64,000 nucleotides of DNA from an uncultured delta proteobacterium (lineage in GTDB: Bacteria; Myxococcota_A; Polyangia; Polyangiales; Polyangiaceae). Made by a program: the position numbers and the translations under genes. Numbering within the stretch: position 1 is the first letter of the stretch; every line of letters starts with the position of its first letter. The DNA is taken from NCBI GenBank assembly GCA_963782055.1, contig CAWAIF010000003.1:6176001-6240000 (forward strand), in the 5' to 3' direction. Shown one piece after another: positions 1-24,048 of the stretch. The notes under the pieces were generated by a model, which had not been told where the DNA came from, did no database searches, and worked only from the letters and a program-made list of their open reading frames with translations.

Positions 1-755
1 CTCGCGAGCCGGGAGCCCCGCGAGCGTGTGCGCGCTGACGAGCCCGCCTCGTAGCCCTCGCGTGCCGTGATGCGGGCGATCCTGCGGCGCGCGCCGCCCG
101 CTCGTGGGCGCGCGCGGAGCCGAAGGAGGCCGCGATGGGTGCGAAGCGAAGACTGCGGGACACGATGAGCGAGGACCTCGCGCTGCGAGGGATGAGCGCC
201 AACACGATCGCCACGTACGTGGGGTGCGTGCGGCGGTTCGCGCAGTACCAGGTGCAAAAGGAACGTCCGGATCTCCGCCGCCCCCAGCGCGCACGGCGAC
301 CGCCCGTCGCTTGCCACACGCCTGCCCTCGTGCGCACCGCGCTGCCGGAGCCCCGAGCTCGCGACCCGCCGGGGGCCGCATGATCTCCCCGCGTCGTGTT
401 CCACTGCGCTCGCTCCACGAGTGCGGCGCAGGCCCCTGTCCATCCGCGCCACGAAAACCCGCCCTCCGAGCACGCACGGCTGCCCGCTGCGCGCTCCGGG
501 ACGCCCGCGTCGAGCGCCGTCCCGCCGCCCGCTCCGCACCTCGCGCACCCGCACGCGTGACCCACACGCCGCCAACTTCCCCATAGGGCTCCGAGGCCAC
601 CGCCTCGCCGCTGCCGCGCACCGGCTTCGTCCAACCGTCGATTTCGCGACCGCGCACCCGCGCCACGCGACCGGCGCCGCGACCCGGCGCGCTCACGCAA
701 TCGACTCTTACTTATGCGAAATGGCCGTCCGGTCTCACTGGAAGGACGGACCAGG
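1..755 (+). mobile_element. Non-autonomous, internally deleted copy (copy A) of the tyrosine recombinase/IS91-like element; left part runs off the window
   Basis: 1-249 is the reverse complement of ~10260-10508 (integrase 5' end). ~250-307 matches 10204-10260 in inverted orientation. 308-755 is the reverse complement of ~7989-8437 (transposase 3' end and terminal arm). Confidence 0.9.
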
Positions 756-765
756 TCTAGCTACG

Positions 766-7814: not shown

Positions 7815-8362
7815 GGCGCGCGATCGGCGACGTCGCCGGAAGATCGGCGACGTCGCCGATGCGCCTGGGCGCGAGCGCGTGGGCGGGCGCGGGCGCGTGG
7901 GCGGGCGCGTGGGCGCGTGGGCGAGCGCGAGCGCGTGGCCGGAACCGGGCGGGCGCGATGAGACAGGACATCGCGCCCGCCGAGCCACCCTGGTCCGTCC
8001 TTCCAGTGAGACCGGACGGCCCCACTTCGCATAAGTAAGAGTCGATTGCGTGAGCGCGCCGGGTCGCGGCGGCGGTCGCGTGGCGCGGGTGCGCGGTCGC
8101 GAAATCGACGGTTGGACGAAGCCGGTGCGCGGCAGCGGCGAGGCGGTGGCCTCGGAGCCCTATGGGGAAGTTGGCGGCGTGTGGGTCACGTGTGCGGGTG
8201 CGCGAGGTGCGGAGCGGGCGGCGGGACGGCGCTCGACGCGGGCGTCCCGGAGCGCGCAGCGGGCAGCCGTGCGTGCTCGGAGGGCGGGTTTTCGTGGCGC
8301 GGATGGACAGGGGCCTGCGCCGCACTCGTGGAGCGAGCGCAGTGGAACACGACGCGGGGAGA

Positions 8363-9523
8363 TCATGCGGCCCCCGGCGGGTCGCGAGCTCGGGGCTCCG
8401 GCAGCGCGGTGCGCACGAGGGCAGGCGTGTGGCAAGCGGGGCAGCGGCGCAGGTCGATGCCCGCGATTCGCAGCAGCAGGTCGGCGGCGTCGGCACGGCG
8501 CACCGGTCGCGCAGCGGGCGCCGCGTGCGGACCCAGTCTGCGGCGTGCGGTCTCGAGGCGCGTGGTGGCGTGGCTGGCGGAGTGCAGGCCGTAGTGGCGG
8601 ATCTTGACGAAGCCGCGCGGCAGCACGTGCTGGACGAAGCGCGCGAGCAGCTCCTCGGCCGGGACGGTGACCGACTTGCCGTCTCTGGTGCGGAAGGTGA
8701 CGCCGCGCTCGCCCATCGAGACGAAGCGGTGGTTGGAGATGCCGACGCGGTGCGTGTAGCGACCGAGGTAGCGGATGACCTGAGCGGGGCCGCCAAAGGG
8801 TCGCTTGGCGTAGACGACCCAGGCCTTGCGTCGGAGCGCCAGCAGGTCGACGCCGCCCAGGTCGACGAGGCCGCGCGCGTGGGCGCGCTCGAGAGCGGCG
8901 AGCATCTTGCCGCGAAAGAGCGCGCCCATCACGCGCACGGGGAAGAGGAAGCGACGGCGCGCGCGCACCCAGCGCGCGGCGTCGCCGGTGAGTCCGCCGC
9001 CGGTGACGATGGCGTGCACGTGGGGGTGGAAGAGCAGCGCGCGCGTCCAGGTGTGCAGGACCATCGTGACGCCGAGCTCGGCGCCGAGCCACTTCGGATC
9101 CCGCGCGAGGGTGGCCAGCGTGTCGGCCGCGCTCGCGAAGAGCATGTCGAAGACCCGCGCGCGCGAGCGCCGCGCGACGGCGCGCAGCTCGGCGGGGAGC
9201 GTGAAGACGACGTGGAAGTAGTGCACGGGCAGAATGCGCTCGAGCCGCGTGGCGACCCACCGCGCCTGCGCGAGCGACTGGCACTTGGGACAGTGCCGGT
9301 TGCGGCACGAGTTGTACGACGGTCGCTCGAGCCCGCACGCGGTGCACACGTCCAGATGTCCGCCCAGCGCGGCGGTCCGGCATCGCTCGATCGCCCGCAG
9401 CGCCGACCGCTCCTCGGGACGCAGCACGCGGCCGCCGGCGAAGGCCTCGCCGTGGGCGCGCACCACGTCCGCGAGCTCGATGGGCGCCGCGCACGTGCGC
9501 GCGGGCGCACACGACGGGTGCAT
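8363..9523 (-). CDS. IS91-family rolling-circle (HUH/Y2) transposase
   Basis: N-terminal Zn-binding C..C...YNSCRNRHCPKC, HPHVH (HUH), YLGRY (Y2), KIRHYG. Confidence 0.93.
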   Translation of the reverse strand: MHPSCAPARTCAAPIELADVVRAHGEAFAGGRVLRPEERSALRAIERCRTAALGGHLDVCTACGLERPSYNSCRNRHCPKCQSLAQARWVATRLERILPVHYFHVVFTLPAELRAVARRSRARVFDMLFASAADTLATLARDPKWLGAELGVTMVLHTWTRALLFHPHVHAIVTGGGLTGDAARWVRARRRFLFPVRVMGALFRGKMLAALERAHARGLVDLGGVDLLALRRKAWVVYAKRPFGGPAQVIRYLGRYTHRVGISNHRFVSMGERGVTFRTRDGKSVTVPAEELLARFVQHVLPRGFVKIRHYGLHSASHATTRLETARRRLGPHAAPAARPVRRADAADLLLRIAGIDLRRCPACHTPALVRTALPEPRARDPPGAA

Positions 9524-9529
9524 CGGGGC

Positions 9530-10375
9530 TCAGGGCAGCGCGTCGAGGGGGCTCTGAATCGACTGCACGCGGGCGGTGCTCACGTGCAGGTAGGCCATCG
9601 TGCTCCTGAGCGACGCGTGCCCGAGCAAGACCTGCAACGTGCGAAGGTCGGTCCCTGCGTCGAGCAGGTGCGTGGCGAAGCTGTGGCGCAGCGTGTGCGG
9701 CGACACGCGCCGGGTGATGCCCGCGCGCCGCGCCGCCTTGAGGATCGCCCGGTGGACGGCCGCGCGCGTGAGGAGCGTCCCGGGCACGCGCCCCGGAAAC
9801 AGTTGCGGTCCTGCGGGTCGTGACGCCTTCCAGTACGCGCGCAGCGTCGCCAGCAGCCTCGCGCTGAGCATCACGTAGCGCTCACGCCCGCGCTTGGTGT
9901 GCCGCACGTGCAGGAGCATCCGCTTCGGATCGATGTCGTCCACCCGGAGCTTGCACACCTCGCTCACGCGCAGCCCCGCCCCGTAGGCGAGCATCACCAG
10001 GGCCCGGTGCTTGTGGCTCGTGAGCGACGCGAGCAGCCGCGCCACCTCCGCGCTCGTCAGCACCACCGGCACGTGCATCGGCACCCGCATGCGCGCCATC
10101 CCCAGCGTCGCCTCCGGCCGCTCCAGCGTCACCTCGTAGAGAAACCTCAGCGCGGCCGCGTGCACGTTGACCGTCAGCGCCGCCAGCCTGCGCTCCGCCA
10201 CCAGGTGCAAAAGGAACGTCCGGATCTCCGCCGCCCCCAGCGCGCACGGCGACCGCCCGTGGTACTGCGCGAACCGCCGCACGCACCCCACGTACGTGGC
10301 GATCGTGTTGGCGCTCATCCCTCGCAGCGCGAGGTCCTCGCTCATCGTGTCCCGCAGTCTTCGCTTCGCACCCAT
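9530..10375 (-). CDS. Tyrosine recombinase with N-terminal SAM-like domain
   Basis: GLRVSE, TKRG, HTLRHSFATH, LGH and TMAY catalytic residues; lacks the integron-integrase insertion. Confidence 0.93.
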   Translation of the reverse strand: MGAKRRLRDTMSEDLALRGMSANTIATYVGCVRRFAQYHGRSPCALGAAEIRTFLLHLVAERRLAALTVNVHAAALRFLYEVTLERPEATLGMARMRVPMHVPVVLTSAEVARLLASLTSHKHRALVMLAYGAGLRVSEVCKLRVDDIDPKRMLLHVRHTKRGRERYVMLSARLLATLRAYWKASRPAGPQLFPGRVPGTLLTRAAVHRAILKAARRAGITRRVSPHTLRHSFATHLLDAGTDLRTLQVLLGHASLRSTMAYLHVSTARVQSIQSPLDALP

Positions 10376-11964
10376 CGCGGCCTCCTTCGGCTCCGCGCGC
10401 GCCCACGAGCGGGCGGCGCGCGCCGCAGGATCGCCCGCATCACGGCACGCGAGGGCTACGAGGCGGGCTCGTCAGCGCGCACACGGCTCGCGGGGCTCCC
10501 GGGTCGCGAGCGAGCTTGATGCGGAGCCACGCTGCCGCGCAGCGGCTTCGTCCAGTGCGCCCAGCATGGGCATCAACCCGGAGGTGAAAGTCCTTCCTGA
10601 AATTGGTCACAATGACAGAAGCGAACCACAAGGGCGGAACCGTGAGGGACCGTCTGGAGGAAGTGGGGAGCGAAGCCGCGGGCCGACGTACAGAAATCGG
10701 ATCGGAGGCGTGGCCGAGCAGGGCGAGCGGACTGGAACCCGCGAAGCTCTCGTGACCGAAGCTCGGCGGCGTATATCCGGCGGTCGTGCGGTGAAGGTTG
10801 ATGCTCTTACCTGGGGAGATCTCGCCTCGCGCCTGAAAGGGCGACGGCCGGCGACAACGTCGGACGGAGCGAGAAGTCAGCAGAGGCCGTAGTAGCGGCG
10901 AAGGAGCCGGGCAGGGACCCCCCCCGAACCCCGGAAGTCTCTATCGCTGCGAAGGGCCAAACGGAGAGGAGGGCGAAACGCCCATGGATCTCGAGAACGC
11001 GCAGCCACAGAAGTCCAAGAGCGAGACGCCGACCGCCGCGGATGGTGAAGCCCCGAGCGACGACCGACGCGTGGAAGCGGATTCGGCGACCCATGGAACC
11101 GAGCGCTCAGGAACGAGCGGGCTGATGGAGGCGGCGCTCACGCGCAAGAACCTTCAGGCCGCGCTGAAGCGAGTGAAGCGGAACAAGGGCAGTCCCGGCA
11201 TCGACGGGATGACGGTGGAGGAGCTACCGGACCACCTTCGCGTGCACTGGCCGTCCCTCCGCGAGCAGCTGCTCGCGGGGACGTACCAGCCGCAGCCGGT
11301 GCGACGGCACGTGATTCCGAAGAGCGGCGGCGGCGAGCGACAGCTCGGCATCCCGACGGTGCTCGACCGACTCATCCAGCAGGCCCTCTTGCAGGTCCTG
11401 CAGCCTCGATTCGATCCGACCTTCTCGGAGCACAGCCACGGCTTCCGGCCGCGGCGCAGCGCGCACGACGCCGTGCGCGAGGCGAAGCGGTATGTGCAGC
11501 AAGGAAGACGATGGGTGGTCGACGTGGATCTCGAAGCTTTCTTCGACCGCGTCAACCACGACGTGCTCATGGGGAGACTGGCCAAACGAATCGAGGATCG
11601 GCGCGTGCTGGGACTCATCCGTCGCTACCTGAACGCCGGCATCATGGCGAACGGCGTCGTGATGGATCGCGACGAGGGAACGCCCCAGGGCGGTCCTCTC
11701 TCGCCAATGCTTGCGAACGTGCTCCTCGACGAAGTCGACAAGGAGCTGGAGAAGCGCGGACACGCCTTCGTGCGCTACGCCGATGACAGCAACGTTTACG
11801 TGCGGTCACGGCGAGCGGGCGAGCGGGTCATGCAGGCGCTGCGGCGTCTCTACGCGAAGCTCCATCTCCAGATCAACGAGTCGAAGAGCGCGGTGGCACC
11901 CGTGCAAGACCGGAAGTTCCTCGGCTACACCTTTTGGTTGTCGTCGAAGAACGAGGTCCGCTGC

Positions 11965-13409
11965 CATGCCCGATCTCTTAAGCACCGATCGCCCCAAGTT
12001 TGAGGGCGATTCGTTTCCTGGAGCGTGAAGGTTGTCGTTCGCGTGCCAGAGCGACGAGTGCCGCGCCCACGGTGGTCACGACGGCAGTCCACGCGGCGGT
12101 GCTCAGGGAGACGAGGGCGTCGACCAGGTCCCGCGCGTAGGCGCGCACGACGTGCAACGTCGCCAGGGGGCGCAGTTGCTCGAGAGGGACGTCGCGCGCG
12201 AGTGCAGCCTGGATCCTGACCGAGCGCACGAGCGCGTGGGCGAGCATCGCGCCGTAGGTGAGCGCCTTGATCGCGTGGGGATCGGCGGTGAAGGAGCGGC
12301 CGAGGTCGGCGGTCTGCTTCAGCTCGCGAAAGAGCAGCTCGATCAGCCAGCGGAGTCGGTAGGTCTGGATGATCTGCCGTGGCGAGAGCACGCTGCGCGG
12401 CACGGTGGTCAGGTACCAGCGGATGACGGTCGACTTGTGCGCGAGTCCCACGAGCCGCAATGCGACGGTGTCCTTGCCCTTGCCCCACGTCACGTCGAGG
12501 TCGAAGATCGTCCCGCGCTTGCGCGACACGCTCTGCAGGTAGTAGCCAAGCGACCAGTTGTGGAGCGGGGTGTGGCCGTTCTCCGAGATGTGCGCGGTCA
12601 CGCGTACCTTCGCCGTGGTCTTGAGGCGCATCAGCACGTGCGCGCCGGCAGCCTTCGCCTGGGTGAACAGAGCGCGCTCGAAAAAGCCGAGGTCGAAGAG
12701 GTAGAGCACCCCGCGCGTGAAGCTCGGGACCAGCTTCCGCCACAGCGGCGTCTCCGACGCGGTCTCCGCGTCGGAGACGCCGTGCTCGAGCAGGCCGGTC
12801 TTGATGCTGTAGCCCATCACCCACTTGGTGCCGGCCTTGCCCTTGGTGCATCCCGGCAGCAGCTCGCGCCCGCGCGGTGGCACGCGCTGCCCCGTACCGT
12901 CGTAGACCCGCACGTCCTCGAAGCGGGCGAGCGGCCCGCTCAGCTCCAGGCCCGCCGCCTTCGTCACCGACGCCACGAGGTGCTCGAGCGCCGCGCGGAA
13001 GAACGCCGCCGCCGACTCCTGCTTGAACCGCTTCTGGAACGGGCACGGGCGCATGAAGCCGAAGCGCCTCACGAAGATCGCCCGCAGCGACTCGAACGAC
13101 AGCGTCTGGCCCGCGAGGAACCCCTCGACGACCGTGAGCACCAGGCGGAACGCGGTGGCGCGCCGCTGCCGCGGGTTGTAGCCGGTGCGGCCCCGAAGCT
13201 CGTCGATGACCGCCGGCGTGAAGGTCCGCTGCAGCTGCTCCTCCACCGCGCTCGCCTCTTCGCTCGGGTCTGGACGGCTGCTCGTGGCTCGGGTAGCTCT
13301 CGTCGTCATCGGGCGTCCTCTCCTTGTTGGTGTCGCAACCGAACAACGAGAAAGGCGCCCGATTTATTTCCATCATTCCGCCACGTTATGTCCAAAGGAT
13401 CTGGCCATG
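11965..13409 (-). mobile_element. IS4-family element (1445 bp) with 10-bp TSD GGTCCGCTGC
   Basis: Ends CATGCCCGATC / GATCTGGCCATG; TSD at 11955-11964 and 13410-13419. Confidence 0.92.
11978..13309 (-). CDS. IS4-family DDE transposase
   Basis: YDGT, FDLGF, YRLRWLIELLFRELK (YREK motif). Confidence 0.92.
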   Translation of the reverse strand: MTTRATRATSSRPDPSEEASAVEEQLQRTFTPAVIDELRGRTGYNPRQRRATAFRLVLTVVEGFLAGQTLSFESLRAIFVRRFGFMRPCPFQKRFKQESAAAFFRAALEHLVASVTKAAGLELSGPLARFEDVRVYDGTGQRVPPRGRELLPGCTKGKAGTKWVMGYSIKTGLLEHGVSDAETASETPLWRKLVPSFTRGVLYLFDLGFFERALFTQAKAAGAHVLMRLKTTAKVRVTAHISENGHTPLHNWSLGYYLQSVSRKRGTIFDLDVTWGKGKDTVALRLVGLAHKSTVIRWYLTTVPRSVLSPRQIIQTYRLRWLIELLFRELKQTADLGRSFTADPHAIKALTYGAMLAHALVRSVRIQAALARDVPLEQLRPLATLHVVRAYARDLVDALVSLSTAAWTAVVTTVGAALVALARERQPSRSRKRIALKLGAIGA

Positions 13410-13645
13410 GGTCCGCTGCACGATCGCGCGCAAGGCCCTCGACACGATGAAGGACCGCGTGCGGCACATGACGAGCCGCATGCGCGGTCGGAGCCTGGCC
13501 CAGGTCTGCCGAGATCTGCGAGGGTACTTGCCAGGCTGGAAGAACTACTTCCAGCTTGTCGAGCTCCGCACGCTCTTTCGCGAGCTGGACTCTTGGATCC
13601 GGCACCGACTCCGCGCACTGCAGTTGAAGCAGTGGGTGCGAGGAG

Positions 13646-15090
13646 CATGCCCGATCTCTTAAGCACCGATCGCCCCAAGTTTGAGGGCGATTCGTTTCCT
13701 GGAGCGTGAAGGTTGTCGTTCGCGTGCCAGAGCGACGAGTGCCGCGCCCACGGTGGTCACGACGGCAGTCCACGCGGCGGTGCTCAGGGAGACGAGGGCG
13801 TCGACCAGGTCCCGCGCGTAGGCGCGCACGACGTGCAACGTCGCCAGGGGGCGCAGTTGCTCGAGAGGGACGTCGCGCGCGAGTGCAGCCTGGATCCTGA
13901 CCGAGCGCACGAGCGCGTGGGCGAGCATCGCGCCGTAGGTGAGCGCCTTGATCGCGTGGGGATCGGCGGTGAAGGAGCGGCCGAGGTCGGCGGTCTGCTT
14001 CAGCTCGCGAAAGAGCAGCTCGATCAGCCAGCGGAGTCGGTAGGTCTGGATGATCTGCCGTGGCGAGAGCACGCTGCGCGGCACGGTGGTCAGGTACCAG
14101 CGGATGACGGTCGACTTGTGCGCGAGTCCCACGAGCCGCAATGCGACGGTGTCCTTGCCCTTGCCCCACGTCACGTCGAGGTCGAAGATCGTCCCGCGCT
14201 TGCGCGACACGCTCTGCAGGTAGTAGCCAAGCGACCAGTTGTGGAGCGGGGTGTGGCCGTTCTCCGAGATGTGCGCGGTCACGCGTACCTTCGCCGTGGT
14301 CTTGAGGCGCATCAGCACGTGCGCGCCGGCAGCCTTCGCCTGGGTGAACAGAGCGCGCTCGAAAAAGCCGAGGTCGAAGAGGTAGAGCACCCCGCGCGTG
14401 AAGCTCGGGACCAGCTTCCGCCACAGCGGCGTCTCCGACGCGGTCTCCGCGTCGGAGACGCCGTGCTCGAGCAGGCCGGTCTTGATGCTGTAGCCCATCA
14501 CCCACTTGGTGCCGGCCTTGCCCTTGGTGCATCCCGGCAGCAGCTCGCGCCCGCGCGGTGGCACGCGCTGCCCCGTACCGTCGTAGACCCGCACGTCCTC
14601 GAAGCGGGCGAGCGGCCCGCTCAGCTCCAGGCCCGCCGCCTTCGTCACCGACGCCACGAGGTGCTCGAGCGCCGCGCGGAAGAACGCCGCCGCCGACTCC
14701 TGCTTGAACCGCTTCTGGAACGGGCACGGGCGCATGAAGCCGAAGCGCCTCACGAAGATCGCCCGCAGCGACTCGAACGACAGCGTCTGGCCCGCGAGGA
14801 ACCCCTCGACGACCGTGAGCACCAGGCGGAACGCGGTGGCGCGCCGCTGCCGCGGGTTGTAGCCGGTGCGGCCCCGAAGCTCGTCGATGACCGCCGGCGT
14901 GAAGGTCCGCTGCAGCTGCTCCTCCACCGCGCTCGCCTCTTCGCTCGGGTCTGGACGGCTGCTCGTGGCTCGGGTAGCTCTCGTCGTCATCGGGCGTCCT
15001 CTCCTTGTTGGTGTCGCAACCGAACAACGAGAAAGGCGCCCGATTTATTTCCATCATTCCGCCACGTTATGTCCAAAGGATCTGGCCATG
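13646..15090 (-). mobile_element. IS4-family element, second copy, with 10-bp TSD GTGCGAGGAG
   Basis: Appears identical to 11965-13409; TSD at 13636-13645 and 15091-15100. Confidence 0.92.
13659..14990 (-). CDS. IS4-family DDE transposase
   Basis: Identical protein to 11978-13309. Confidence 0.92.
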   Translation of the reverse strand: MTTRATRATSSRPDPSEEASAVEEQLQRTFTPAVIDELRGRTGYNPRQRRATAFRLVLTVVEGFLAGQTLSFESLRAIFVRRFGFMRPCPFQKRFKQESAAAFFRAALEHLVASVTKAAGLELSGPLARFEDVRVYDGTGQRVPPRGRELLPGCTKGKAGTKWVMGYSIKTGLLEHGVSDAETASETPLWRKLVPSFTRGVLYLFDLGFFERALFTQAKAAGAHVLMRLKTTAKVRVTAHISENGHTPLHNWSLGYYLQSVSRKRGTIFDLDVTWGKGKDTVALRLVGLAHKSTVIRWYLTTVPRSVLSPRQIIQTYRLRWLIELLFRELKQTADLGRSFTADPHAIKALTYGAMLAHALVRSVRIQAALARDVPLEQLRPLATLHVVRAYARDLVDALVSLSTAAWTAVVTTVGAALVALARERQPSRSRKRIALKLGAIGA

Positions 15091-15511
15091 GTGCGAGGAG
15101 TCACCGTCTTCCGAGAACTGCGCCGACGGGGGATTCCCTCCCGTCGACGCTCGCCGCGCGGCAGCAAATACGACGCGCTGGTGGCGAACCTCGGGAATGC
15201 GCGTCCTCAGCGTGGCTCTGCCGAACAAGCTCTTCGACGAGCTGGGGCTTCCCCGGCTCGACACGTGACCTCAACTCTCCGAACCGCCGGATGCGGACCC
15301 GCCTGTCCGGTGGTGTGGCAGGGGTCCCCGGGGAAACCCGGGGCCCCTATGCCGATACGTGTGTTTCGTAAACTTTTCCCGCCCGATCGCGCTAGGATTT
15401 CCTACGTGCTCCACCGGCGCCTGCTGCAGGTCCATGTCGGCGGCGAGCGTTGGGCGTAGTGATGCGGCCGGGGCCTCGGCCTGGGCTACGAGGGGACCAC
15501 CGGGGGCCACC

Positions 15512-20030: not shown

Positions 20031-21323
20031 ATGAAGAAGAGAGCCGCAAAGAGGAACAGGAAGCAAGAGGCGTCGGCGGGGGCCGCGCTGCCGGAGGCGT
20101 TCCGGCAGATGGTCCCGCCGATGATCGCCGGCATCGAGGTCACTCGGAGCGGCTTGCTGGCGTTCGTCCACGCGATGGGTCGCGCCGCACTCGACGAGCT
20201 TCTTCGGGGCGAGGCCGAGCGCGTCGCTGGCCCGAAGGGCAAGCACGTCGCTGGTCGTGCCGCGCACCACTGGGGCACGACCCACACGCCGCTGCCGTTC
20301 GGTGGGCGTGACATCGTCGTGCAGCGGCCGCGCGTCCGCAGCAAGGACGGGCGCGAGGTCGCCTTGCCGTTGGTGGAGGAGCTTCGTCGTCGCGACCCGC
20401 TGCCCGACCGGGTCGCCGAGCAGATCGTGCTCGGCGTCTCGACGCGCGGCTACGAGCGGAGCCTGGAGCCGGTCGCGGCCGGAACCAGGACGCGGCGCGC
20501 GAGCAAGAGTGCGGCGAGCCGGGCGCTCGTGGACAAGACCACGGAGAGGATGAGCGCGTTCCTCCGCCGCCGTCTTGACGCGCTCGACATCGTGGCGATG
20601 TTCGCCGACGGACTGGAGGTGGCGAGCCAGACAGTCATCGTGGCCCTCGGCGTTACGGCCGAGGGGACGAAGGTGCCGCTGGGCCTCTGGCTCGGCTCGA
20701 CGGAGAACGCGGCGGTCTGCACCTCGCTCGTGCAGAACCTGGTCGAGCGGGGGCTGAGGATCGACGGCAAGTTCCTGCGCGTGATCGACGGCGGCAAGGG
20801 GCTGCGCAAGGCGCTCTGCGACGTGCTCGGGTCGAGCGCGGTGCTGCAGCGCTGCCAGGTCCACAAGACGCGCAACGTCCGCGACCATCTGCCCGACTCG
20901 CGCAGGGCGTACGTGAGCGGCCAGATGCGCGAGGCGTACCGGACGCGCAACGCGAAGGTCGCCAAGAAGCGGCTGCTTCAGCTCGCGTCGTGGCTCGACA
21001 AGAACGGCGAGGACGCGGCGGCCGGCAGCCTGCGCGAGGGTCTCGACGAGACGCTCACCGTGCTCAAGCTCGGCCTCCATCCCACCCTCTGCCGCACCTT
21101 CGCGACGACCAACGCCATCGAGAACATGAACGGGACCATCCGCCGCACGCGCAACGTGAAGCGCTGGCGCGGCGGCCCGATGATCCGCCGCTGGGTCGCC
21201 CTCGCGGTGGTCGAAGCGCAGAAGAAGTTTCGGCGCGTGAAGGGTCACGCCCACATGTCCGCGCTCGTCCGCGCCCTGCGCCCCGAGCAGCTCACCGTTG
21301 CCGACCGGGAGAAGGTCGCGTAG
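20031..21323 (+). CDS. IS256 (Mutator)-family transposase; element probably starts ~19890, right inverted repeat not found
   Basis: GVSTR, FADG, VIDGGKGL, QRCQVHK.RN and TTNAIENMNGTIRR motifs. Confidence 0.88.
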   Translation: MKKRAAKRNRKQEASAGAALPEAFRQMVPPMIAGIEVTRSGLLAFVHAMGRAALDELLRGEAERVAGPKGKHVAGRAAHHWGTTHTPLPFGGRDIVVQRPRVRSKDGREVALPLVEELRRRDPLPDRVAEQIVLGVSTRGYERSLEPVAAGTRTRRASKSAASRALVDKTTERMSAFLRRRLDALDIVAMFADGLEVASQTVIVALGVTAEGTKVPLGLWLGSTENAAVCTSLVQNLVERGLRIDGKFLRVIDGGKGLRKALCDVLGSSAVLQRCQVHKTRNVRDHLPDSRRAYVSGQMREAYRTRNAKVAKKRLLQLASWLDKNGEDAAAGSLREGLDETLTVLKLGLHPTLCRTFATTNAIENMNGTIRRTRNVKRWRGGPMIRRWVALAVVEAQKKFRRVKGHAHMSALVRALRPEQLTVADREKVA

Positions 21324-21729
21324 TCCATCAGACCGCCGCCGGTACGACTGCTCACGTAGGTTCGCGTTTTCCAGTCGGAGCGAACGAACCTTTTCGTATA
21401 AGTAAGAGTCGATTGCGTGAGCGCGCCGGGTCGCGGCGGCGGTCGCGTGGCGCGGGTGCGCGGTCGCGAAATCGACGGTTGGACGAAGCCGGTGCGCGGC
21501 AGCGGCGAGGCGGTGGCCTCGGAGCCCTATGGGGAAGTTGGCGGCGTGTGGGTCACGTGTGCGGGTGCGCGAGGTGCGGAGCGGGCGGCGGGACGGCGCT
21601 CGACGCGGGCGTCCCGGAGCGCGCAGCGGGCAGCCGTGCGTGCTCGGAGGGCGGGTTTTCGTGGCGCGGATGGACAGGGGCCTGCGCCGCACTCGTGGAG
21701 CGAGCGCAGTGGAACACGACGCGGGGAGA

Positions 21730-22890
21730 TCATGCGGCCCCCGGCGGGTCGCGAGCTCGGGGCTCCGGCAGCGCGGTGCGCACGAGGGCAGGCGTGTGGC
21801 AAGCGGGGCAGCGGCGCAGGTCGATGCCCGCGATTCGCAGCAGCAGGTCGGCGGCGTCGGCACGGCGCACCGGTCGCGCAGCGGGCGCCGCGTGCGGACC
21901 CAGTCTGCGGCGTGCGGTCTCGAGGCGCGTGGTGGCGTGGCTGGCGGAGTGCAGGCCGTAGTGGCGGATCTTGACGAAGCCGCGCGGCAGCACGTGCTGG
22001 ACGAAGCGCGCGAGCAGCTCCTCGGCCGGGACGGTGACCGACTTGCCGTCTCTGGTGCGGAAGGTGACGCCGCGCTCGCCCATCGAGACGAAGCGGTGGT
22101 TGGAGATGCCGACGCGGTGCGTGTAGCGACCGAGGTAGCGGATGACCTGAGCGGGGCCGCCAAAGGGTCGCTTGGCGTAGACGACCCAGGCCTTGCGTCG
22201 GAGCGCCAGCAGGTCGACGCCGCCCAGGTCGACGAGGCCGCGCGCGTGGGCGCGCTCGAGAGCGGCGAGCATCTTGCCGCGAAAGAGCGCGCCCATCACG
22301 CGCACGGGGAAGAGGAAGCGACGGCGCGCGCGCACCCAGCGCGCGGCGTCGCCGGTGAGTCCGCCGCCGGTGACGATGGCGTGCACGTGGGGGTGGAAGA
22401 GCAGCGCGCGCGTCCAGGTGTGCAGGACCATCGTGACGCCGAGCTCGGCGCCGAGCCACTTCGGATCCCGCGCGAGGGTGGCCAGCGTGTCGGCCGCGCT
22501 CGCGAAGAGCATGTCGAAGACCCGCGCGCGCGAGCGCCGCGCGACGGCGCGCAGCTCGGCGGGGAGCGTGAAGACGACGTGGAAGTAGTGCACGGGCAGA
22601 ATGCGCTCGAGCCGCGTGGCGACCCACCGCGCCTGCGCGAGCGACTGGCACTTGGGACAGTGCCGGTTGCGGCACGAGTTGTACGACGGTCGCTCGAGCC
22701 CGCACGCGGTGCACACGTCCAGATGTCCGCCCAGCGCGGCAGTCCGGCATCGCTCGATCGCCCGCAGCGCCGACCGCTCCTCGGGACGCAGCACGCGGCC
22801 GCCGGCGAAGGCCTCGCCGTGGGCGCGCACCACGTCCGCGAGCTCGATGGGCGCCGCGCGCGTGCGCGCGGGCGCACACGACGGGTGCAT
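21730..22890 (-). CDS. IS91-family rolling-circle transposase
   Basis: One amino acid different from 8363-9523. Confidence 0.93.
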   Translation of the reverse strand: MHPSCAPARTRAAPIELADVVRAHGEAFAGGRVLRPEERSALRAIERCRTAALGGHLDVCTACGLERPSYNSCRNRHCPKCQSLAQARWVATRLERILPVHYFHVVFTLPAELRAVARRSRARVFDMLFASAADTLATLARDPKWLGAELGVTMVLHTWTRALLFHPHVHAIVTGGGLTGDAARWVRARRRFLFPVRVMGALFRGKMLAALERAHARGLVDLGGVDLLALRRKAWVVYAKRPFGGPAQVIRYLGRYTHRVGISNHRFVSMGERGVTFRTRDGKSVTVPAEELLARFVQHVLPRGFVKIRHYGLHSASHATTRLETARRRLGPHAAPAARPVRRADAADLLLRIAGIDLRRCPACHTPALVRTALPEPRARDPPGAA

Positions 22891-22896
22891 CGGGGC

Positions 22897-23742
22897 TCAG
22901 GGCAGCGCGTCGAGGGGGCTCTGAATCGACTGCACGCGGGCGGTGCTCACGTGCAGGTAGGCCATCGTGCTCCTGAGCGACGCGTGCCCGAGCAAGACCT
23001 GCAACGTGCGAAGGTCGGTCCCTGCGTCGAGCAGGTGCGTGGCGAAGCTGTGGCGCAGCGTGTGCGGCGACACGCGCCGGGTGATGCCCGCGCGCCGCGC
23101 CGCCTTGAGGATCGCCCGGTGGACGGCCGCGCGCGTGAGGAGCGTCCCGGGCACGCGCCCCGGAAACAGTTGCGGTCCTGCGGGTCGTGACGCCTTCCAG
23201 TACGCGCGCAGCGTCGCCAGCAGCCTCGCGCTGAGCATCACGTAGCGCTCACGCCCGCGCTTGGTGTGCCGCACGTGCAGGAGCATCCGCTTCGGATCGA
23301 TGTCGTCCACCCGGAGCTTGCACACCTCGCTCACGCGCAGCCCCGCCCCGTAGGCGAGCATCACCAGGGCCCGGTGCTTGTGGCTCGTGAGCGCCGCGAG
23401 CAGCCGCGCCACCTCCGCGCTCGTCAGCACCACCGGCACGTGCATCGGCACCCGCATGCGCGCCATCCCCAGCGTCGCCTCCGGCCGCTCCAGCGTCACC
23501 TCGTAGAGAAACCTCAGCGCGGCCGCGTGCACGTTGACCGTCAACGCCGCCAGCCTGCGCTCCGCCACCAGGTGCAAGAGGAACGTCCGGATCTCCGCCG
23601 CCCCCAGCGCGCACGGCGACCGCCCGTGGTACTGCGCGAACCGCCGCACGCACCCCACGTACGTGGCGATCGTGTTGGCGCTCATCCCTCGCAGCGCGAG
23701 GTCCTCGCTCATCGTGTCCCGCAGTCTTCGCTTCGCACCCAT
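22897..23742 (-). CDS. Tyrosine recombinase
   Basis: One amino acid different from 9530-10375. Confidence 0.93.
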   Translation of the reverse strand: MGAKRRLRDTMSEDLALRGMSANTIATYVGCVRRFAQYHGRSPCALGAAEIRTFLLHLVAERRLAALTVNVHAAALRFLYEVTLERPEATLGMARMRVPMHVPVVLTSAEVARLLAALTSHKHRALVMLAYGAGLRVSEVCKLRVDDIDPKRMLLHVRHTKRGRERYVMLSARLLATLRAYWKASRPAGPQLFPGRVPGTLLTRAAVHRAILKAARRAGITRRVSPHTLRHSFATHLLDAGTDLRTLQVLLGHASLRSTMAYLHVSTARVQSIQSPLDALP

Positions 23743-24048
23743 CGCGGCCTCCTTCGGCTCCGCGCGCGCCCACGAGCGGGCGGCGCGCGCCGCAGGATCG
23801 CCCGCATCACGGCACGCGAGGGCTACGAGGCGGGCTCGTCAGCGCGCACACGGCTCGCGGGGCTCCCGGGTCGCGAGCGAGCTTGATGCGGAGCCACGCT
23901 GCCGCGCAGCGGCTTCGTCCAACGTGTGTTTCGTAAACTTTTCCCGCCCGATCGCGCTAGGATTTCCTACGTGCTCGAAGCCATCACGAATGAGCGGGCC
24001 ATCGTCGAGCAGGACGTGCTCGTGGAGTGGGCTACGTCCAGAGAGTGC

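Follow-up and report, generated by a model that had tools for sequence, protein, structure and literature searches.

The gene pair considered here, a tyrosine recombinase gene (int) next to an IS91-family transposase gene (tnp), is already known: ISfinder recognizes a subgroup of IS91 elements with a tyrosine-recombinase gene upstream of the transposase. With respect to the recombinases, those of IS91 and IS3 elements have been placed in an 'Integron-like' subgroup that lacks the insertion of the integron integrases (10.1101/542381). That study only classifies them, and among the papers found none explains the role of the tyrosine recombinase in IS91-type elements; likewise, within the limits of the library searched, no paper was found on the end logic of this dyad, on dif-like targeting or on small carriers of the kind described below, and a literature search on the name ISAzo26 gave no match. 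Two further systems bear on the question, namely integron cassettes, with their principle of one-strand exchange resolved by replication, which is also known for CTX phage at dif (PMC9345347), and phages that integrate at dif, whose pseudo-dif sites vary in the centre and are degenerate in the XerD arm (PMC3025954). Here we analyze an int-tnp element, copy C, in a 64,000-nucleotide window (C3:6176001-6240000, within a 7.58-Mb genome of three contigs) of an uncultured delta proteobacterium of the family Polyangiaceae.

Comparison of occupied and empty sites indicates that copy C is a nested mobile element with two layers, as judged from sequence: a carrier of ~100 bp that mimics dif outside, and a 2521-bp core with int and tnp inside. 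A preliminary description of the window had proposed such a layering, with a core inside outer arms, and this part of it holds, as do its left hairpin with the loop TTCCAGT and its right arm ending in ...GGATTTCCTACGTGC at 23974. A BLASTN search of the region against the whole genome placed related copies at ~13 loci on C3, with nine intact int genes among them. A search with the arms alone recovered 21 mini-elements of ~100 bp in which the left arm of the majority type is fused to the right arm without a core; all 21 are joined at one point (...CTTCGCAT-AAG-ATGGATT(T/C)CGTAAAC...) and 19 retain an intact centre. One additional mini-element (C3:4412486-4412588) has the arm type of copy C, and the empty site predicted from the revised core boundary matches it with one mismatch in a genome search. 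Occupied copies read ...TTCGCATAAG/TAAGAG...core...GTCCAAG/ATGGA..., and by the empty forms the left joint falls at ...CGYATAA/ and the right joint at ...GTCCAA/. Given these empty mini-elements and full copies, the inserted unit is 21402-23922, up to the shared AA(G), and both TTCGYA repeats are left behind. The only public runs with the stretch are soil and marsh metagenome contigs (shares of at most 0.33; the source sample may be among the runs); four of these yielded an empty joint of the C type (21399 joined to 23922 with one G, in run X1), as well as contigs that end at the core edge.

The core is far better conserved than its surroundings. Between copy C and one majority copy, it differs at 4 of 2522 positions (99.84% identity), whereas the left arms agree at only 23 of 43 positions (53%) and the right arms at 44 of 53 (83%), which implies that the core moved between carriers. 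Thus, the earlier proposal that copies A and B share the layout of copy C is correct for the core and incorrect for the left arm, which in the majority copies has another sequence that BLAST does not align with that of copy C; the left-arm hairpin has nevertheless kept its loop TTCCAGT, with compensatory changes in the stem. The same picture is seen in G004, a genome of the same genus whose recombinase is 76% identical: the cores are 98.6% identical, similarity ends at the core edge, the flanks are diverged carriers, and an empty carrier (locus L135: CACTTCGCATAA/CGGGCG/TTCCGTAAAC) matches the occupied form GTCCAA/CGGGCGTTCCGTAAAC. In all cases, 2-5 bases are common to the element end and the target. 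Furthermore, four copies (C3:5203459, 5217679, 5223074 and 6328624), in at least two carrier variants, have one and the same 199-bp deletion in tnp (window 22091-22289), and its presence at four different loci indicates that transposase-defective copies were mobilized in trans.

The target that the joints define resembles the recombination site of the host chromosome. Between structured ends, each carrier has a centre composed of an XerC-like arm, six nucleotides and an XerD-like arm, which reads TCGCATAA-GATGGA-TT(T/C)CGTAAAC in the majority type and TTTCGTATAA-CGTGTG-TTTCGTAAAC in the C type (the latter deduced from its two occupied junctions; the extant empty copy differs by one substitution). 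The carrier centre is also found as a single-copy intergenic site in the genomes G001, G004, G005 and G017; its interpretation as a promoter was dropped in favor of dif. The only strict dif-like site of the genome, TCGCATAA-GATACA-TTATGTAAAC at C3:3558741, falls at the peak of the cumulative GC skew (3,555,000) on the 7.0-Mb replicon, closely resembles the dif-like site of Sorangium cellulosum (PMC2650636) and shares its XerD arm with B. subtilis dif (PMC3025954); from this position and these likenesses we take it to be the chromosomal dif. No copy of the element occupies it. The TTTCGTA direct repeats of the preliminary description are indeed present (21392-21398 and 23929-23935), and they are the XerC-like and XerD-like arms of the dif mimic and not crossover sites. 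In each of three carrier types, the joint falls exactly where the XerC-like arm meets the 6-nt centre. The three centres are GATGGA, CGTGTG and CGGGCG, and none of them resembles the core's own GTAAGA (TCAAGA in G004); the lack of a match argues against two-strand exchange. All core copies with a readable joint are at this type of site, except for a hybrid left junction at C3:2727011.

The ends of the core are equally distinctive. Besides palindromes at both ends, there is the 27-bp inverted repeat (IR) starting with GTTGGAC that had been noted previously, with 26 of 27 positions matched between its two copies. The bulged hairpin GTCGATT...AATCGAC lies, as described, between the left TTTCGTA and GTTGGAC (DNA fold, dG -21.2, z -4.0), and the ori-like motif downstream of tnp, CTATGGGGAAGTT, was likewise located, at 21527-21539; for the motif at this place, CATAGGG is also found just ahead of the IR in relatives from the Acidoferrales. 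The int-tnp dyad is present in 12 of the 13 fetched loci of the same order and in 41 of 80 loci from many phyla that were retrieved with a recombinase profile; the neighbors of relatives with the recombinase only are heterogeneous and uninformative. In 10 of 12 nearby elements, an IR starting with GTTG(G/A)ACGAAGCC is found upstream of int and its complement ending GGCTTGT(T/C)CAAC downstream of tnp. Among the wider loci, a strict regular expression for the IR matched only 11 of 41 and was replaced by alignment against shuffled sequences, by which the IR outscored all 60 shuffles in 15 of 38 testable loci, in 14 of which a hairpin follows it; further loci hold the same box below the shuffle threshold, and several short contigs of relatives end exactly at /TTGAAC.

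The downstream IR is always followed by a long hairpin, six unpaired bases (TCAnnG in relatives, TCTTAC here) and the boundary TT. Thirteen such modules span 79-92 nt between tip and boundary, one of them having been extracted at greater length, and in all 13 the fold is found at one and the same place, with stems that differ in sequence (z -2.0 to -7.8). These are folds of individual sequences, used because a consensus fold of eight hairpin modules aligned with MAFFT gave none, two subgroups being out of register. Placed head to tail, the core ends read GTYCAAC-hairpin-N6-TTGRAC, and the computed fold of this junction has a dG of -54 to -64 kcal/mol, mostly due to the IR itself. This sustains the earlier comparison with attC: the joined ends, GTCCAAC-hairpin-(C/G)TTGGAC, conform to RYYYAAC...GTTRRRY and are conserved, with covarying stems, in relatives from several phyla. 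Together with the related copies at ~13 loci and the nine intact int genes, the recurrence of IR and hairpin places these features beyond chance. In an Acidoferrales contig with two copies, the repeated unit is the bare core, with GACTT at both sides and unrelated flanks, from which we conclude that the core is the mobile unit of the family and the carriers are a speciality of this genus. As a separate observation, at L029:6311-6470 the hairpin module is in tandem duplicate with the joint G/TTAA/C, as expected for recombination between two core boxes.

The recombinase is integron-like/Xer-like and has an intact catalytic set. Residues R136, K161, H227, R230, H253 and Y262 are invariant in 12 aligned homologs, and the best solved relatives are the archaeal XerA-like protein 4a8e (8.9e-39) and the integron integrase IntI4 (2a3v, 2.1e-37). 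Alignment with IntI4 gives two blocks, separated by 25 residues where IntI4 has 66, with a C-terminal SPL in common; this difference in length implies that the IntI insertion is absent, as the preliminary description had it. The tnp translation contains HPHVH and YLGRY, with a Y2_Tnp domain and an N-terminal zinc-binding domain. For comparison, we aligned three copies of an IS801-like element, which has no recombinase, from a Pseudomonas savastanoi plasmid. Its ends are GAAC-AGGGCAGCCTGCGGCTGC... and ...ATGCATAGGCATTTTGAAATTCCTATGCAT followed by GAAC or GGAC, in agreement with PMC13181058, and it has no terminal IR (best match 7 bp). The intact catalytic set, the similarity to IntI and the absence of the IR from the element without a recombinase support a role for the recombinase in movement of the core.

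We therefore hypothesize, with roughly even confidence for and against, that single-stranded circles made by tnp fold into an attC/dif-like site and that the element's own recombinase exchanges one strand with the dif mimic. In the first step, the Y2 HUH transposase would peel one strand of the core off as a circle, with the canonical IS91 polarity and the plus strand of the window as the presumed transferred strand. The IRs of this postulated circle would then pair and, with the hairpin, create a forked site that consists of a duplex ending in GTCCAA, six unpaired nucleotides and a second duplex; folding and conservation are the basis for this structure, and we infer that it forms in the cell. 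The recombinase, as the presumed enzyme, would next cut after ...AA in the folded site and after ...CGCATAA in the dif mimic, positions that are observed in the empty and occupied sites, and would exchange a single strand only. The resulting junction would be resolved by replication, a prediction that follows, like single-strand exchange itself, from the observed lack of homology between the centres.

Several observations weigh against this scheme. The base of the hairpin, that is, the second duplex arm, is not conserved in sequence and so offers no evident binding site, and the Acidoferrales core targets GACTT without a dif-like target. No circle junction is present in the assembly, nor is a circle joint found in four public metagenome contig sets, in which contigs lose rare forms. 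In the internally deleted copy C3:2725754-2727011, the left boundary of the core abuts unique DNA exactly (...TTTACCAT/AAGTAAGAG), with the carrier left arm gone and the right arm retained; this arrangement stems from either a hybrid end event or deletion at a secondary site, and a pure recombinase model accommodates it only in the second case. Moreover, the GTCC ahead of the right joint also fits the short-word rule of the IS91 family, in which GTCC and GTTC are known words (PMC13181058), and the transposase alone could make both joints.

Joining by the transposase alone is accordingly the main rival: the Y2 HUH enzyme would cut and join the core ends by classical IS91 rolling-circle transposition, and the recombinase would be an accessory for target choice, multimer resolution or control. 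In its favor, the core has the canonical IS91 polarity, in that its gene-upstream end has one small palindrome and its downstream end has two, the layout described for terIS and oriIS (PMC13181058) and also seen in the IS801-like copies; GTCC or GTTC directly precedes the right joint; the junction at C3:2727011 combines a core end on unique DNA with a retained carrier end; and head-to-tail carrier dimers exist. Nevertheless, targeting of the IS91 type needs four bases without long-range specificity, whereas here a single position of a ~28-bp dif mimic is used in three carrier lineages. In addition, joining by HUH enzymes does not require the 2-5 shared bases that are seen in all cases, and the long IR is missing precisely from the IS801-like element that lacks a recombinase. 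On balance, we regard this alternative as unlikely, albeit a serious one.

A second alternative is that the host XerC/XerD carry out the exchange at the dif mimic and the element belongs to the integrative mobile elements exploiting Xer (IMEX) in the strict sense. XerC cuts dif at the boundary between its arm and the centre. The joint is located where XerC would cut, the XerC-like arm of the carrier matches the real dif at every base of TCGCATAA, and the XerD-like arm agrees at 8 of 10 bases. However, the core's own arm, GGCTTCGTCCAA, differs from the dif arm, and it is this core arm, not the dif arm, that accompanies the recombinase as a conserved feature across phyla, also in relatives with targets that are not dif-like; the real dif, for its part, is empty. 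Exchange by the host enzymes is thus improbable.

There is similarly little to recommend the view that the 2.62-kb unit is an ordinary insertion sequence (IS) ending at the outer arms, with a core that is not mobile by itself and with the mini-elements as miniature inverted-repeat transposable elements derived from one chance deletion between two AAG. The mini-elements are nearly identical, as expected for a single amplified deletion product, and the carrier ends are like those of IS801. Against this, one joint position recurs in three carrier types that have diverged from one another, two of them in the present genome and the third in G004, and an empty form exists for each; identity falls off abruptly where the core ends; full copies of the C type and the majority type are closer to each other in the core than in the arms; and in other phyla the relatives move as a core without a carrier. 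Finally, the crossover between the two TTTCGTA repeats suggested in the preliminary description, which would excise a 2.54-kb circle, can practically be dismissed even though both repeats exist, given that all natural empty forms retain both, that in majority copies the left repeat is TTCGCA and the right one TTTCGTA or TTCCGTA, and that the two predicted junction strings (circle and empty site) have 0 matches in the genome at up to 2 mismatches.

As for the carriers themselves, the right terminal hairpin (GCGCTAGG-ATTT-CCTATGCGC) resembles the oriIS hairpin of the IS801-like copies, on the other strand, with agreement at 11 of 15 terminal bases. A head-to-tail carrier dimer without a spacer is found at C3:4433276-4433480, and a degenerate partial right arm precedes three further carriers (left flanks at 2741239, 4411489 and 5265262). 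The dimer and the partial arms suggest that new carriers may land directly behind an existing carrier end, and the oriIS-like hairpin and the dimer faintly suggest that the carriers might be IS91-type miniature elements, which the transposase may perhaps move in trans. If the right arm is an oriIS, the genes of the core point the 'wrong' way, which fits a secondarily inserted core. Orthologous empty sites for two carriers were sought in five genomes of the genus and none was found, the flanks being strain-specific; nor did 60 searched genomes of the family yield full-length carriers outside the genus. An integron-like cassette array of carriers was considered and rejected, since the intervening open reading frames (ORFs) are in mixed orientation and the spacing is uneven (0.3-8 kb). 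One carrier (C3:4450558-4452183) has a 1.5-kb insert in its dif mimic with an 8-bp target duplication (CGCATAAG); this was rejected as an alternative cassette because it is IS66-like, as named from motifs in the ORF translation only.

Table 1. Positions in the window of copy C, its parts and the two other copies.
Feature	Position	Strand	Remarks
Carrier left arm, C-type	21353..21401	+	terminal CACGTAGG; hairpin with loop TTCCAGT; XerC-like arm TTTCGTATAA at 21392-21401
Mobile core, 2521 bp (int, tnp, both IRs, hairpin)	21402..23922	-	edges ambiguous within shared AA(G)
Core's own 6-nt centre GTAAGA, spacer from joint to hairpin	21402..21407	+	TCTTAC on gene strand; TCAnnG in relatives
Long bulged hairpin, GTCGATT (21408-21414)...AATCGAC (21470-21476)	21408..21476	.	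DNA fold
Inner IR, tnp-distal copy, GTTGGACGAAGCC...	21478..21504	+	small GC-rich palindrome inside
AACTTCCCCATAGGG motif, downstream of tnp	21525..21539	-	sequence motif
tnp, IS91-family Y2 HUH transposase, 386 aa	21730..22890	-	Pfam Y2_Tnp 3.5e-49, Zn_Tnp_IS91 5.3e-30
int, integron-like/Xer-like tyrosine recombinase, 281 aa	22897..23742	-	Pfam Phage_integrase, SAM_4
Inner IR, int-proximal copy, ...GGCTTCGTCCAAC	23897..23923	+	complement of 21478-21504
Carrier right arm	23923..23974	+	centre CGTGTG 23923-23928; XerD-like arm TTTCGTAAAC 23929-23938
Right-arm terminal hairpin, GCGCTAGG-ATTT-CCTACGTGC	23954-23974	+	resembles oriIS end of IS801-like copies
Copy B, majority-type carrier and core	7986..15411	+	split at GTCCA/AC by group II intron; right arm resumes 15357
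Copy A, truncated and rearranged, at window edge	1..758	-	genome BLASTN

Other mobile elements are found in and around these copies. A group II intron is inserted at GTCCA/AC of the IR tip at three loci (copy B, window 10555-15356; C3:5216048; C3:2272360), and the identical position implies that the recombination site itself is its homing target. The intron of copy B (Rfam RF02001, 114 bits, 10636-10805; reverse transcriptase ORF 10984-12003) is in turn interrupted by two DDE_Tnp_1 IS copies in tandem (11978-13309 and 13659-14990, both on the minus strand). Another Y2_Tnp gene, distinct from tnp, is represented by its C-terminal half at C3:2271717-2274381 (L118; Pfam 4.1e-07), and after it come the IR described above, the group II intron, the hairpin and a left arm of the majority type; this locus is what is left of a second lineage that shares the end module. 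Two partial copies in G004 (L021:3996-5080 and L022:4462-5532) contain int with the IR proximal to it; tnp is missing from both, and both break at the same place, the junction of int and tnp. On the left of copy C, an IS256/Mutator transposase gene occupies 20031-21323, and its unrelated IS ends at ~21351, exactly where the copy C left arm starts; the end of this IS is found again at C3:4439258-4439409.

With respect to the IS91 family (IS91, IS801, IS1294), the element shares the Y2 HUH transposase with a zinc-binding N-terminus, the lack of a target duplication and the subterminal palindromes; it differs in its 27-bp IRs, its long hairpin, its own recombinase and the ~28-bp dif mimic in place of a tetranucleotide target (PMC13181058). 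Integron cassettes, recombined by IntI between attC and attI, have joined ends of the same RYYYAAC-hairpin-GTTRRRY form with stems that are variable in sequence and conserved in structure, along with a similar recombinase. In contrast to integrons, the attC-type site exists here only in the joined, circular form, the IntI insertion, the attI/Pc platform and the cassette array are missing, the ORFs between carriers run in both directions, the IR reaches 20 bp outward from the core boxes, and the 'cassette' codes for its own recombinase and transposase. The IMEX, exemplified by CTX phage with its folded single-stranded site recombined by XerC only, share the dif architecture, the joint between XerC arm and centre and the non-matching centres; unlike them, this element has its own recombinase with an intact catalytic set and a rolling-circle transposase, and its targets are mimics carried by small repeats, with the real dif left unoccupied. 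Recombination sites are likewise the specific insertion targets of the attC-homing IS1111-attC elements and class C-attC group II introns (PMC9229058), whose enzymes, a DEDD transposase and a reverse transcriptase, are different.

The new contributions of this locus are the base-exact empty sites, the unoccupied real dif and the carrier layer. Together they amount to a natural experiment, with occupied and empty targets at base resolution, three centre variants, an unoccupied dif and near-identical cores in diverged carriers; the natural empty sites make the role of the recombinase directly testable, and the system bears on how single-strand-specific recombination, as at attC or in CTX phage, obtains its substrate. 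We tentatively suggest, with somewhat more doubt than belief, that the element is a self-contained 'mobile attC', in which HUH-made circles and an IntI-like recombinase of the element's own would support one-strand exchange into dif mimics that are spread by carriers, themselves possibly mobilized by the transposase. If this is correct, the 'mobile attC' would connect IS91 elements, integron cassettes and dif-integrating phages at the level of mechanism and would be a possible model for the origin of attC-type recombination.

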